From a virus (lineage: Duplodnaviria; Caudoviricetes), in the IMG/VR virus record IMGVR_UViG_3300012682_000166, positions 1 to 25,213 of that record: a DNA stretch of 25,213 nt. One strand, given 5' to 3'. Positions 4,420 through 15,869 of the stretch are shown here, piece after piece. The position numbers and the translations under genes are program-made. Positions within the stretch are counted from its first letter, which is position 1. Each line of letters begins with the position of its first letter. A model generated the notes under the pieces. It made no database searches. It was given only the letters and a program-made list of their open reading frames with translations, and was not told the DNA's origin.

Positions 4420-4739
4420 TGAGTTCAGATGATATTTACGTGAATACAGGTCTAGACTACGCCCCAGCTGACTACCAAGCAACAATACCGAAGGAACGCC
4501 TCGAGCAGGAGAGTAAAGAAGCCGCTATTAAAGCCGCTAGCTACCCAATAATGGCTGACATCGCTGACTGGTTTCAAGTACAGTTTGCTTATCTTGATTC
4601 ACGGACGGCAGTATTAGCTTATGCTACAGAGTACGAAGTAGATGTCGAGGTAGCTGGAAGAGCCTTTGATGTAGCCCGTGATATCATCGCCGTCAAGGCC
4701 AAAGAGTTTGAAGACTTCCAAAGTGAAAAAGACGTATGA
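4419..4739 (+). CDS. Hypothetical protein (106 aa)
   Basis: TAATG overlap with the portal stop and GGAG SD upstream. Confidence 0.75.
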   Translation: MSSDDIYVNTGLDYAPADYQATIPKERLEQESKEAAIKAASYPIMADIADWFQVQFAYLDSRTAVLAYATEYEVDVEVAGRAFDVARDIIAVKAKEFEDFQSEKDV

Positions 4740-4969
4740 CAGACACTGACTACACACCGGAAGAGCTAGAAGCATTGCCCCAGACGGAAACTATATTTAA
4801 CCAGCCAGCCTTAGAGTTCGATAACCATGTGTGGGTGCAAGTTGGCTATACCATAGAAGACCACTGCCCTACCGGTTGTGTGTCTCAAGGTATACCAATC
4901 AAGTCTGGTACAATGCTCATAAAAGATAAGGAGACCGGCAAGTACAGCATAGTAGACGAAGTTAGATAG
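4736..4969 (+). CDS. Hypothetical protein (77 aa)
   Basis: ATGA overlap with the upstream gene. Contains H..W...G....DHCPTGC. Confidence 0.7.
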   Translation: MTDTDYTPEELEALPQTETIFNQPALEFDNHVWVQVGYTIEDHCPTGCVSQGIPIKSGTMLIKDKETGKYSIVDEVR

Positions 4970-12102: not shown

Positions 12103-12576
12103 TTAAAATAGGGATAGGACTCCACCCGGATTATCTATTTCTAACTTATATTTAATTTCAGCTTGTTGACGTGCTTTCACTGCATCATCGTAATTTCTAA
12201 ATCGCTTGTTTAAAACAACTATTCGGTCTATGGTTAGCATTGCTTTCCAAGTATTTTTAGTGTTATCCCAATTTACTCCCGGATTTTTAACGTTATCACT
12301 TCTGTTTATTGCTTGCTGGTGAACGGTTGCCCAACGGCAATTACTCGGCTCGTATATACCGTTGTTATCAATACGATCGACACTGTGCTTTGGGCTAGGA
12401 CGTGGTCCCATATCTTCTGCAAAATTTAAATAGCTATATCTCCAACGTTCACACATTGTTATTCCCTTAGCCCCATATCGGGCGTAAGCATGATGACTTT
12501 TAGTAAAACATCGTTGTTTGATTTTTGCCCATAAACGATATTCTTGTGTTTTACTCAATCCATGTACAATATTCAT
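12103..12576 (-). CDS. HNH endonuclease with C-terminal AP2-like DNA-binding domain
   Basis: HG.S.T.EY..W..IKQRC, YGAKGI.MC.RW, MGPRPS..HSVDRIDNNG.YEP.NCRWAT, then GV.W......WKA...RF....DAVKAR..AE. AGGAGA SD. Confidence 0.9.
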   Translation of the reverse strand: MNIVHGLSKTQEYRLWAKIKQRCFTKSHHAYARYGAKGITMCERWRYSYLNFAEDMGPRPSPKHSVDRIDNNGIYEPSNCRWATVHQQAINRSDNVKNPGVNWDNTKNTWKAMLTIDRIVVLNKRFRNYDDAVKARQQAEIKYKLEIDNPGGVLSLF

Positions 12577-12635
12577 ATAGTCTCCTATCTACTTTAAGCG
12601 GTGGTGGGAGACTTTTAAATTGTCTCTTAATTTCT

Positions 12636-12644
12636 ATTATAACA
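12636..12644 (-). promoter_or_regulatory. Extended -10 promoter (TGtTATAAT) for the HNH-AP2 gene
   Basis: Perfect TGn-TATAAT about 60 nt upstream of the start codon. Confidence 0.65.
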
Positions 12645-12667
12645 GAGGTCGTTACAGTTAAACAGTG

Positions 12668-14011
12668 TTAATTTCTTTGTAGCCCTACTTCGACTTTTCC
12701 AGCCTGTCTCGTTCCCCAGCCTGTCTTAAACACTGTCAGATAAGCGTAATACTTAACGAACCGCATAACACAAAGCAACCATATCATGGCAATAGGAGCC
12801 GTCAGAAACGTTATAAACTGAGATACAACCGACTCATCTGACCGCCGTATAATCAGATACCGCAGAGACTGCACGTAAGCGATTATAACGGGTACTAACA
12901 CCAGATACGGTAACAACTGCCGGTTATGAAAGATACCGCTGTAAATCAGGTATACGCTAGCCACGGCAGACAAGGCAAACTGTACCCACCGGAACAGGTG
13001 CAACCAGTAGATGTATGACGTTAAAGGAAAATACTTGAACCGCCACCATGTCCGTATAAAGCTACCTCTCATCCAGCGAATGTAGCGCCGGATGTGGTGA
13101 CTGTACTTATTCGGTACGGCACTAAAGGCAATTGAGTTGGTTTGCTGTACGGTCTTACCATGGTTCAGGGCATATAAGGTCATTAAGGAGTCATCACTAA
13201 ACCGGACTTCCCTACCGAAAAACGTTTCACTCATATAGCCTGACATATAGGTACGGATAGTATCACCTCTATAGAAGGCTAGTATGCCACTATTGACGGT
13301 GACACAGCCCATAGTCGATTGTGCCGAGCGTTCGACTAACTGCCAGATAGTCTCCCAGAGTCCAGTAAACCGGGTGAGCAGGTTCTCTGATACGTTGATA
13401 GGCAGACACAGGCCAGCAACCGACTGTATACGAGGATCGGCAAACGGTAGCAGACCGTTCCGGATAGCATCAGGGTCAAGTACCGTGTCACTGTCCAGTG
13501 TCAGATAGATGTCAGCATCCGGGTTATTGGCTATACCGACAGATTGAGCATGACGTTTGCCGCCGTTGTCTGTCCGTGTCCAACGGATTGATATATCTCG
13601 ACGTTCCAGTAGTGCTACGAGCCACAGCCGGACAGGTTGGTAATTCTTAGTCGAACCGTCATCGACAACCTCTATATGATTCGGTAGTCTACTCTGTATC
13701 AGCAGGGAATTGATACAAGCCTTGAGGAGTGCCTCATCCTCGTTATAGGCAGGGATTAAGACAACGACACGTAACTTGTCCAGTTCACGTTCCTGTACTC
13801 TACTAGCCGTCTTCGGACGTTCCAGCAGTGCCAGTAGATTCGTCCAGGCGATAGTTGCAAATGACAGTATCCAGATAAGCCACAGACTATCCGGCCTTAG
13901 TGAGGGAATAGCTACCGTAGCGATATGCCGCATCAGCCAAGCGGCAATAGCAGCCAGTACCAGAACTAAAACAAAGACGATCCGGCCGTTACTTAACCGG
14001 GCAGATAACAT
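12668..14011 (-). CDS. Processive membrane glycosyltransferase, GT2, hyaluronan synthase/NodC/chitin synthase-like
   Basis: IPAYNE, VDDGS, GKRHAQ, LTLDSDT, ERSAQS, SG...YR, SDD, RYIRW in place of QxxRW, and C-terminal WGTR. Two N-terminal and several C-terminal hydrophobic helices. Confidence 0.9.
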   Translation of the reverse strand: MLSARLSNGRIVFVLVLVLAAIAAWLMRHIATVAIPSLRPDSLWLIWILSFATIAWTNLLALLERPKTASRVQERELDKLRVVVLIPAYNEDEALLKACINSLLIQSRLPNHIEVVDDGSTKNYQPVRLWLVALLERRDISIRWTRTDNGGKRHAQSVGIANNPDADIYLTLDSDTVLDPDAIRNGLLPFADPRIQSVAGLCLPINVSENLLTRFTGLWETIWQLVERSAQSTMGCVTVNSGILAFYRGDTIRTYMSGYMSETFFGREVRFSDDSLMTLYALNHGKTVQQTNSIAFSAVPNKYSHHIRRYIRWMRGSFIRTWWRFKYFPLTSYIYWLHLFRWVQFALSAVASVYLIYSGIFHNRQLLPYLVLVPVIIAYVQSLRYLIIRRSDESVVSQFITFLTAPIAMIWLLCVMRFVKYYAYLTVFKTGWGTRQAGKVEVGLQRN

Positions 14012-14179
14012 CTATTCTCCGATGTTTTTATTCTTACGCCAGACGTAGCGGATAAGTAAGGCAGCACAGACAACGATGACGGCAATAGCCCCGACGGTTA
14101 TCAGTTGTCCAGTCAATGTGCTGGCGAATAGAATACCACCGCCGGTTACTGGTAATACTTTAGGTTGGCCGTAGTCCAA
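14012..14179 (-). CDS. 55-aa peptide consisting almost entirely of an LPXTG sorting signal (MDYGQPKV-LPVTG-...-TM-RKNK)
   Basis: TTG start at 14179 with AAGGGG 7 nt upstream. LPVTG is followed by a hydrophobic helix and a basic tail. The stop abuts the GT2 ATG (TAGATG), and GGAG lies just upstream. Confidence 0.75.
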   Translation of the reverse strand: MDYGQPKVLPVTGGGILFASTLTGQLITVGAIAVIVVCAALLIRYVWRKNKNIGE

Positions 14180-14218
14180 GATAATTCCCCTTATCGTTAA
14201 TTCCCTGTTATGTCCTGC

Positions 14219-14224
14219 ATTATA
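14219..14224 (-). promoter_or_regulatory. -10 box TATAAT for the LPXTG-peptide/GT2 operon
   Basis: Perfect TATAAT about 40 nt upstream of the TTG start. Confidence 0.6.
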
Positions 14225-14274
14225 CACTACTTGGCATAAGCGGTATTTTAGGACTAAGACAATCGTTAGCTGTA

Positions 14275-14283
14275 TGGTACTAT
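14275..14283 (+). promoter_or_regulatory. Extended -10 promoter (TGgTACTAT) for the putative structured RNA
   Basis: TGn-TACTAT with AAGACA 16 nt upstream, divergent from the GT2 operon promoter. Confidence 0.5.
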
Positions 14284-14298
14284 AGTAGTAACTCAGCT

Positions 14299-14377
14299 TG
14301 TTTATGACTAAATTAGCTAGAGGGGTATAAGGGCTATAGAAAAGCCACTATTGCTAGTGGCCGCCTGTTTATGACTA
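14299..14377 (+). repeat. 12-nt direct repeat TGTTTATGACTA (14299-14310 and 14366-14377)
   Basis: Exact match read from the sequence, extendable to 14/15 nt. Confidence 0.9.
14338..14376 (-). ncRNA. Putative ~40-nt antisense RNA
   Basis: Upstream promoter TTGCAT-16-TAAAAT with TG extension. Ends in GCCACUA-GCAA-UAGUGGC-UUUUC terminator. Confidence 0.55.
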
Positions 14378-14504
14378 GTCTTATTTTATCACCAGTCAGT
14401 ACTTATGCAAATACATTTTTCAGTTTGAGAGTTATACGACCTCTCATTTACAACCAAGACGTATAGTGAGCAGACAAAAAACTAGGCTCTGACCGGCCGC
14501 CTGT
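14359..14504 (+). repeat. 10-nt direct repeat GGCCGCCTGT (14359-14368 and 14495-14504)
   Basis: Exact match read from the sequence. Confidence 0.9.
14383..14410 (-). promoter_or_regulatory. Sigma70-type promoter of the antisense RNA
   Basis: TTGCAT (14410-14405), 16-nt spacer, TGa-TAAAAT (14391-14383). Confidence 0.55.
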
Positions 14505-14682
14505 CAACCTAGTCCCCCGCTTGCTCACTAACTGGATGACTGCCTGAGACTCACGGACTCAGTAGTAGCATCACTGGATAATCAAGCTTGCATAGACCAT
14601 TCCTAGGACAACGGGGGAATAGAGGCGGCTCTATGGCTTAGACAACCATAAGAACTACAATGCTTATATTTATTTCCGTATC

Positions 14683-14691
14683 TGCTATACT
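14683..14691 (+). promoter_or_regulatory. Extended -10 promoter (TGcTATACT) for the ejection-protein cluster
   Basis: TGn-TATACT about 40 nt upstream of the ATG at 14733, and AAGGA SD. Confidence 0.55.
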
Positions 14692-14732
14692 TCTGATATA
14701 CATGATTAATTCTAAATCAAGGACTTTGTAAT

Positions 14733-15869
14733 ATGGCAGGAAACAACATTGGAGCAAGAGTCAGTAATTTCATAGGATTCGACCCAACACCGGGATTCAA
14801 CTTATCAAAACAGGCTAATGGTCAAGCTGGCACATACGGAGTTACGGCTACTGGTACGACTAATCTGTTTGGTAGACAGCAAGGACAGAGTTCAAATGAT
14901 TACGTGAACGGCCTGACGCAGCGTGTCAATAATAGTGGACAGGTACCACAGTATCGTAATGATGCAAGTACAACTCAGCAGCAATCGGGTGCTTACACTG
15001 ACGGCGGTGCCGCCCAAAGACAAGCCGACCTACGCCAGCAATACGGTGATCCCTCCCAGTACGACGCTGAAATCGGTCAGTACCAGAACCAGATAGGCGG
15101 ACTCGGTGCCCAGCAACAAGTCGGTGAACAGAACGTCAATGACCAGTATAATAAAGCCGCCCAAGGCTATTATGACAACAAGGCTAGAGACGAAACCAGT
15201 TATAATCGTGATGTCCAACAGAACGTCCGTAGCTACACCAACAACCGTACCAAGACCATGAACTCTGTCCGTAGCAACGCCAACGCCCTGCAACGCTTAC
15301 TTGGCATGAACGGAGCCGGTAACAGCAGTGCAGCCTTAGAGCAAGCACCGTACGCCGCTGGATTACAAGGCAGCCAAGACCTAGCTGGAGCACAAGAGAC
15401 GTATGGTATGAACGGTCAGAGGCTTAGTGACGAATGGACAGATAGACAGAAGAAATACAAAGACGGCTTTGATGACTTAGAGAATCAGAAGTGGCAAGCC
15501 ATGAACGGTGAGAAATCAAAGACCGCCCAAGCTAGAGCCGGACTACTAGACAAGATTGCTAACGCCAGTGTGAAACGTAACCTAGCCAACGGCCAGACAG
15601 GTGCACAAGCCCAAGCCGGACGCAACCAGTATCAGCCGGAGATTGAAAGCCTACTACAGCAGATTACCCAGCTAGGCCGTACCAATGCTAACCCTGTCCT
15701 GCAAGCTCAGGCAGTTGCTCCAAGGGACTTTACTCTCAGTGACTACGCCCAAGGTAGGCGGACGGCTATAGACAGCCCAGAACTAGCCGGTGGAGGGGAG
15801 ATCAACCCGGTGTTCGCAAGTCTATTTAATAATCGACGAGACGAATACAATACACCACGTTTTAACTAG
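14733..15869 (+). CDS. Putative internal virion/DNA-ejection protein (Q/N/G/A-rich, helical)
   Basis: Composition and position ahead of large ejection-type proteins. No catalytic motifs seen. Confidence 0.6.
   Translation: MAGNNIGARVSNFIGFDPTPGFNLSKQANGQAGTYGVTATGTTNLFGRQQGQSSNDYVNGLTQRVNNSGQVPQYRNDASTTQQQSGAYTDGGAAQRQADLRQQYGDPSQYDAEIGQYQNQIGGLGAQQQVGEQNVNDQYNKAAQGYYDNKARDETSYNRDVQQNVRSYTNNRTKTMNSVRSNANALQRLLGMNGAGNSSAALEQAPYAAGLQGSQDLAGAQETYGMNGQRLSDEWTDRQKKYKDGFDDLENQKWQAMNGEKSKTAQARAGLLDKIANASVKRNLANGQTGAQAQAGRNQYQPEIESLLQQITQLGRTNANPVLQAQAVAPRDFTLSDYAQGRRTAIDSPELAGGGEINPVFASLFNNRRDEYNTPRFN

Follow-up and report, generated by a model that had tools for sequence, protein, structure and literature searches.

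The window (the whole stretch of 25,213 nucleotides that was analysed) is one part of the virion region of a phage, with genes for the terminase, the major capsid protein and internal virion proteins. Because a homologue of the window gene at 14733 is present in one Saccharimonadales genome assembly, the host is likely a Saccharibacterium, a reading drawn from one locus. Between a leftward moron and the rightward virion genes lies a non-coding gap of ~500 bp occupied by a predicted antisense unit, in which a small RNA on the minus strand faces a predicted counter-RNA on the plus strand. The features of the gap and its flanks are as follows.

12103..14227, minus strand: neighbouring moron, with a small LPVTG-containing membrane peptide, a GT2 glycosyltransferase and an HNH endonuclease
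14262..14283, plus strand: predicted convergent promoter, with extended -10 element TG-n-TACTAT at 14275-14283 and an alternative -10 at 14273-14278
14292..14322, plus strand: 5' hairpin of the counter-RNA; site (a), the duplicated target, consists of its 5' arm and loop (14296-14310)
14337..14377, minus strand: predicted ~40-nt antisense RNA, a free 5' guide of ~15 nt followed by the terminator
14343..14362, minus strand: terminator-like hairpin of the intrinsic type, with GCAA tetraloop and UUUUC tail
14383..14410, minus strand: predicted small-RNA promoter, TTGCAT at 14410-14405, 16 nt, TAAAAT at 14388-14383, with TG at the extended -10
14463..14531, minus strand: long hairpin that contains a G-U run and has a U-run following its upper stem (terminator-like), carrying the 10-mer 14495-14504
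14532..14665, minus strand: additional non-coding region with structure, folding more stably on the minus strand
14659..14713, plus strand: promoter-like block before the downstream virion genes, 85% identical in phage record G002, where it precedes a different gene

A preliminary description had embedded the unit in a virion operon; the gap is rather an accessory slot between the leftward moron and virion genes that have a promoter-like block of their own. The moron likewise has its own TG-TATAAT near 14220-14228. We treat it as context for the small-RNA unit, its regulation by the unit being not shown, and it does not seem tied to the unit: in the contigs of sequencing run X5 the unit is covered and the GT2 gene has no coverage, which is in itself no proof of absence. 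The GT2 gene (12668-14227, minus strand) lies behind the small LPVTG-containing membrane peptide, has NodC as its best NCBIfam match, below the cut-off, and is 96% identical in its C-terminal part in G002. At four other loci (L004, L005, L006 and L007) a similar-looking structured leader runs from promoter to start codon ~150 nt upstream of the gene-14733 homologue; these leaders have no Rfam match, and the window is without one.

Guide and duplicated target of the predicted small RNA

The minus-strand promoter (TTGCAT-16-TGaTAAAAT, 14410-14383), ~40-nt RNA and GNRA terminator proposed in the preliminary description are all present in the sequence as stated. The promoter scan includes this minus-strand site, but promoter-like sites are as frequent in this region as in shuffled sequence (5 versus a mean of 4.7), and the convergent promoter at 14262-14283 was seen in the sequence and is missing from the promoter scan's list. 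The terminator scan, which bears on the bidirectional intrinsic terminator typical of par/Fst loci, returned 14343-14362 as terminator-like on the minus strand only. The plus strand has no adjacent U-run. The element at 14275-14283 is predicted to start a plus-strand RNA near 14290, ~2 nt before hairpin (a), and the 12-nt block at 14264-14275 is identical in an analogous module of G002 (module 1, described below).

The two direct repeats reported earlier are borne out, with 14 of 15 positions shared between 14296-14310 and 14363-14377, and 10 of 10 between 14359-14368 and 14495-14504. A CRISPR mini-array, for which we would look for regular repeats of 25-37 nt at equal spacing, was rejected: the copies share only 10-15 nt, their spacings of 67 and 136 are unequal with nothing matching in between, and no Rfam repeat family is found. 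Rfam covariance models, proposed as a check in the preliminary description, gave no match for the window at E<=5 or for 14200-14760 at E<=10. The region also holds a near-palindrome at 14370-14383.

Among 500 shuffled versions of the region 5 contain an equivalent of the 14/15 repeat, as does 1 of 95 other genome windows, and the repeat is thus above chance. The duplex with site (a) has the 14 bp, including one G-U pair, that had been attributed to it in the first plus-strand hairpin, and a net energy of -9 to -11 kcal/mol after opening costs; the hairpin itself (14292-14322) appears in plus-strand folds extending up to 14673. Across 25 kb and both strands, site (a) is the sole site other than the cis site with 15 contiguous pairs, the runner-up having 11. 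In a looser duplex scan that allows bulges, the energies of site (a) and of the second repeat, site (b), are no better than those of several other places in the window, and thus it is the contiguous-pair test alone that singles out site (a). A partial copy in inverted orientation at 14578-14587 has a net energy of -2.0 to +0.8 kcal/mol and was discarded as a possible target.

Natural variants come from runs X2-X4, which belong to one study, and X5, which belongs to another; X1 is left uncounted as possibly the window's own source. One X2 contig is identical to the window across 14287-14451 (165 nt) and one X3 contig across 14287-14422 (136 nt), and at its loose end the latter retains TG-n-TA..T in the same register, with a -10 that is different yet valid. 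The X5 contig matches 14261-14413 with 6 differences, from promoter to promoter, and diverges directly past the -35 box. No difference is listed in X2, X3 or X5 within the antisense RNA stretch 14337-14377. Four listed X5 changes all fall within the 3' arm of hairpin (a), where 3 of 3 affected pairs are retained on the plus strand and 2 of 2 are broken on the minus strand; the variants favour G-U pairs on one strand.

Analogous modules in other phages

G002 module 1 has the same order of parts as the window, namely promoter, 12-nt guide, GNRA terminator and a direct copy of the guide in a hairpin, with the guide and its copy 69 nt apart (67 nt in the window). Its terminator has a different stem and a GAAA loop, followed by the same TTTTCTATA tail. 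The two units share a 9-nt block (the terminator tail) and the 12-nt block of the counter-promoter, and their plain similarity is marginal, with a score of 39 set against a shuffle maximum of 34 and values of up to 37 for unrelated phage DNA. The regions behind the two counter-promoters are unlike each other. Around module 1 (L291:4170-4365 and 4560-4850) there are also a long hairpin (~190 nt, arms of 31 nt), another hairpin with a perfect stem of 15 bp, and a hydrophobic ORF of 52 aa for which a very short leader is predicted.

Module 1 was first spotted by eye and a sequence-independent layout scan was written afterwards, so that only module 2 of G002 is a blind pick. In 1.78 Mb the scan listed 1211 exact 10-nt repeats, 24 rows with a terminator and 7 rows with a -10 box as well. 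These 7 rows represent four places: the window, module 1, module 2 (three rows) and a site in G004 (two rows) that has no counter-hairpin. The same scan of 330 unrelated loci (1.10 Mb) gave no row with a -10 box. Module 2 occupies a slot syntenic with that of the window unit, in inverted orientation, and has a third guide with a spacing of 104. A weaker fourth case in G408 has an exact 9-nt repeat 95 nt away, and the search for a counter-promoter there was negative; the full layout is known from two phage records only.

Cognate guide-hairpin duplexes in the window, module 1 and module 2 have energies of -22.3, -19.0 and -19.8 kcal/mol, against -5.6 to -11.7 kcal/mol for all six non-cognate pairs. 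Each guide is thus predicted to be specific to its own module, giving three addresses without cross-reaction. At the level of sequence, guide and hairpin copy match each other in three modules of differing sequence. Since related phages keep the layout with different but matching sequences, the unit is likely an RNA on/off switch; that both RNAs are transcribed and that regulation follows is what we infer from the sequences. The co-variation of the three copies that the preliminary description had proposed as a check is found for guide and hairpin copy, which differ together in the two G002 modules, but not for the site (b) copy, which is absent there.

These comparisons also bear on a reading in which the repeats act as DNA operators at two convergent promoters, through protein binding or transcriptional interference and in the absence of RNA pairing. 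Both copies do lie at predicted start sites, there is the near-palindrome at 14370-14383, and interference between convergent promoters is established, as set out in the accessible part of PMC2879508. However, the repeat differs between two modules of one phage, and therefore a separate protein would be needed for each, and the second copy sits in the hairpin in which, on one strand, the variants favour G-U pairs. We regard operators as very unlikely.

Close copies of the unit were sought widely. Pattern scans of viral contigs returned chance matches or the window's own record only, as did a scan of metagenome contigs with its 97 stretches, and the scan of genome contigs returned 0. BLAST of phage and plasmid collections and of 13 phage records gave no real match to the unit; among 401 genomes of the host's class BLAST again gave no real match, with 5 short matches outside the core, and a pattern search gave 2 matches, neither of them scored by a model built from the window unit and module 1. 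Run on 38 sources, that sequence-only model did not turn up a third member. In G004 a match of 30 nt (E=0.036) was dropped, since it lies in an apparent coding frame.

The second repeat and the minus-strand hairpin

The preliminary description had the small RNA also pairing with site (b) at 14495-14504, taken to be the apical loop of the longest hairpin. In the plus-strand fold, 6 of the 10 nt of site (b) are paired; the small RNA, for its part, has some of the partner sequence tied up in its terminator stem, and its binding yields a net energy of -3.3 kcal/mol. The minus strand gives the stabler long hairpin (-37.1 versus -26.4 kcal/mol on the plus strand, with -15.8 for the upper hairpin), and there the 10-mer and the small RNA are in the same sense. 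A third direct copy longer than 8 nt is absent from all three analogous modules (modules 1 and 2 and G408). In X5 the site (b) region is absent at 80% likeness, and the site falls beyond the block that X5 conserves. With binding weak, the hairpin stronger on the other strand and no counterpart in the analogous modules, site (b) is not supported as a small-RNA target.

The corresponding three-site model, in which one long plus-strand RNA would offer both remote loops, (a) and (b), to the small RNA for pairing, draws on the rarity of an exact 10-mer matching the segment 14359-14376 (11 of 5000 shuffles), on a gapped extension of this match to ~16 of 22 nt, and on run X4, which covers the long hairpin 14463-14531 with no listed difference. 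An exact 10-mer repeat located anywhere is found in 72 of 500 shuffles and in 21 of 95 other genome windows. Against the model stand the small net energy, the minus-strand preference of the hairpin, the lack of a site (b) counterpart in modules 1, 2 and G408, and the divergence of X5 at 14413, and we judge it highly improbable. The 10-mer match could go back to an old duplication, or it could serve the plus-strand RNA as a target.

The latter possibility leads to a reversed three-RNA circuit, in which the plus-strand RNA would be the effector, acting through 14359-14368 on the tip of the minus-strand hairpin, and the 40-nt RNA would neutralise it. This pairing of 10 bp has a net energy of -10.3 kcal/mol, although the extended duplex, at +0.6 kcal/mol, is unfavourable. 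Folding of the region is biased to the minus strand, with an ensemble energy for 14420-14670 of -86.2 versus -72.1 on the plus strand and z-scores for 14240-14700 of -3.13 and -0.94, respectively, and the variant G14548A of X4 is compatible with the minus-strand fold. The long hairpin offers a terminator-like stem and, on the minus strand, GGGGGA with the TTG start of a 19-codon ORF at 14507. An inverted repeat (14509-14519 with 14612-14622) competes with this hairpin as an alternative pairing, and could be an antiterminator or a cover for the GGGGGA site on the minus strand. However, the analogous modules have no such site, no clear minus-strand promoter was found near 14670-14715, and the region is unlike that of module 1. 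The reversed circuit is, in our view, quite unlikely.

Proposed switch, its output and known antisense systems

We consider it probable that the unit forms one half, the antisense one, of a leader switch made of two convergent RNAs. The ~40-nt RNA of the minus strand would repress the plus-strand transcript predicted to start near 14290. The earlier proposal of a two-RNA antisense switch thus stands for site (a), given the matched guide and hairpin in G002 and the hairpin kept in X5, and falls in its three-site form. In the proposed mechanism, the free 5' end of the small RNA would catch the loop of hairpin (a) early, when ~30 nt of the counter-RNA have been made. Pairing would then spread across all 40 nt with the cis-complementary stretch, and full pairing would shut off the downstream output of the counter-RNA. 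Site (b) lies outside this mechanism.

What the output might be is best seen in the analogues. In module 2 and G408 the counter-RNA is the leader of a gene for a protein of ~90 aa, and the antisense promoter overlaps this gene's ribosome-binding site and start codon. With the cis site kept unpaired, the ribosome-binding site becomes 1.4-2.9 kcal/mol more costly to open, going from 5.0 to 7.9 kcal/mol in module 2 and from 5.8 to 7.2 kcal/mol in G408. Because holding site (a) unpaired leaves the ribosome-binding site unclosed (5.2 kcal/mol in module 2, 4.9 in G408), folding does not explain the role of site (a). In the constrained fold no new, antisense-induced terminator was identified.

The protein belongs to a small helical family of 79 representatives, nearly all of 80-125 aa, with a predicted four-helix fold (pLDDT 80) and no Pfam, PHROG, PDB-sequence or fold match. 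Its nearest named clusters are replication-related and DnaD/RepB-like, at values of 0.77-0.78 that are too low to count. Among the loci examined, the gene is found at four places (G002, G004, G408 and G281), and all four adjoin a promoter-terminator unit; the G002 copy (L278:3808-4023) is truncated at its junction with a GT2 remnant. In G004 (L294:2702-2945, minus strand), tandem promoters precede a small helical gene of ~110 aa, and the 13-nt loop of the hairpin RNA from the first promoter is complementary to the 5'-most hairpin of the leader that the second promoter starts; here gene and promoter-terminator unit share a strand.

No member of the family is present in any frame of the window, and the plus strand of the gap has no ORF with a ribosome-binding site; module 1 is likewise without the small helical gene. 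The earlier statement that there is no obvious long protein gene to regulate is therefore right for the window and module 1, and does not extend to module 2 and G408, which lead the small gene. For the window two readings are the likeliest: the module gates a transcript, non-coding or read-through, in the direction of the virion genes, or its cassette has lost the gene and has no output. A broader possibility, which we regard as unlikely, is a re-addressable, protein-free RNA switch cassette that Saccharibacteria phages swap among accessory slots, each time with a fresh address, and which here would form a three-RNA circuit through pairing of the plus-strand RNA with a minus-strand attenuator at site (b) and gate virion or moron genes.

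Several known systems share features with the unit. ColE1 RNA I is complementary over its whole length to the 5' end of RNA II, and the likeness lies in a small RNA directed against a longer non-coding counter-transcript; no origin features were seen here. The geometry resembles that of pAD1 par (RNA I/RNA II, Fst), where, in the accessible text of PMC7472228, an RNA I of ~230 nt encodes a 33-aa toxin and the repeats are DRa and DRb. Common to both are convergent promoters and an antisense RNA of ~40 nt (both predicted here), and direct repeats that are oppositely read and provide the long RNA with another pairing region close to its 5' end. Unlike par, the window has no toxin frame in the ~30 nt from repeat to terminator, and one repeat instead of two, and in the analogues described here the regulated gene lies beyond the antisense promoter. 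An Fst-like toxin-antitoxin was rejected, as between repeat and terminator there is no hydrophobic frame of ~30 aa with a ribosome-binding site and only an 8-codon ORF.

The unit might instead be a remnant of a par-type type I toxin-antitoxin, with the toxin shrunk to this 8-codon ORF at 14304 or with a leader peptide as its output. The shared geometry (PMC7472228, as far as its available part goes) would fit, the ATG lies within site (a), and two X5 changes keep one Leu codon of the ORF synonymous. However, the ORF has no ribosome-binding site, no hydrophobic frame of toxin size is present, the module 1 hairpin has no ATG frame and the plus strand has no U-run adjacent to the terminator. Of the readings considered here we find this one the least probable.

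With P4 CI (seqA/seqC; PMC4825925) and P1/P7 C4 (PMC12197685), as treated in the available portions of these sources, the unit shares a small phage RNA, more than one leader target and sequence-specific groups. On the same partial texts, CI is processed from the transcript of its targets whereas the RNA here has its own promoter on the opposite strand, and CI and C4 act from the same strand; the unit has no Rfam match. The targets in the window are direct repeats, and therefore the opposite strand is needed; the best inverted matches within 1.3 kb are 7-8 nt. Short cis-antisense RNAs whose promoter is located close to where the regulated gene begins are found in pT181/pIP501 attenuation and Shigella RnaG/icsA (accessible part of PMC2879508) and in P22 sar, sas and lambda OOP (accessible part of PMC12197685). 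Those parts of the two sources do not describe what is seen here, a target duplicated in a 5' hairpin that lies outside the overlap. An antisense-induced terminator in front of a replication gene, typical of pT181/pIP501-type attenuation, was not identified in the constrained fold here. By analogy, the geometry would be that of pAD1 par without a toxin, and the logic that of P4 CI or pT181-type leader control. As read from sequence, the module is a real, conserved cis-antisense leader control with one duplicated target, new as a variant and known in kind.

Trans-acting small RNAs are also predicted in related phages. They are of three sequence types, and the 23-26 nt at their 5' end are the complement of a hairpin with which the early leader begins, with pairings of 23/25 in G411 and G415, 26/26 in G412 and G413, and 23/23 in G004. 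In G414 an RNA of this type is present, and no target was found in its record. The RNA and target pairs are located as follows.

L379:9530-9600 with L378:103-127
L390:10175-10245 with L389:147
L381:10505-10575 with L380:119
L386:8275-8345 with L385:174
L293:9415 (minus strand) with L293:7534

An antisense promoter-terminator unit of ~30 nt also lies in the early leader, directly before the first ORF, at L378:475, L380:480, L385:545 and L389:517, all on the minus strand.

Gene regulation in Saccharibacteria phages is little described. Our search, which covered mainly open-access papers, found no relevant publication on antisense or small RNAs in phages of Saccharibacteria, Patescibacteria or the CPR, and the term 'antisense' is absent from the available part of PMC12647753. 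The module is compact, at ~150 bp, with at least three addresses predicted not to cross-react, and it would use a par-like duplicated target without a toxin. It is directly testable in vitro and in a reporter strain. Together with the trans-acting pairs of related phages, it suggests wide small-RNA regulation in these phages.
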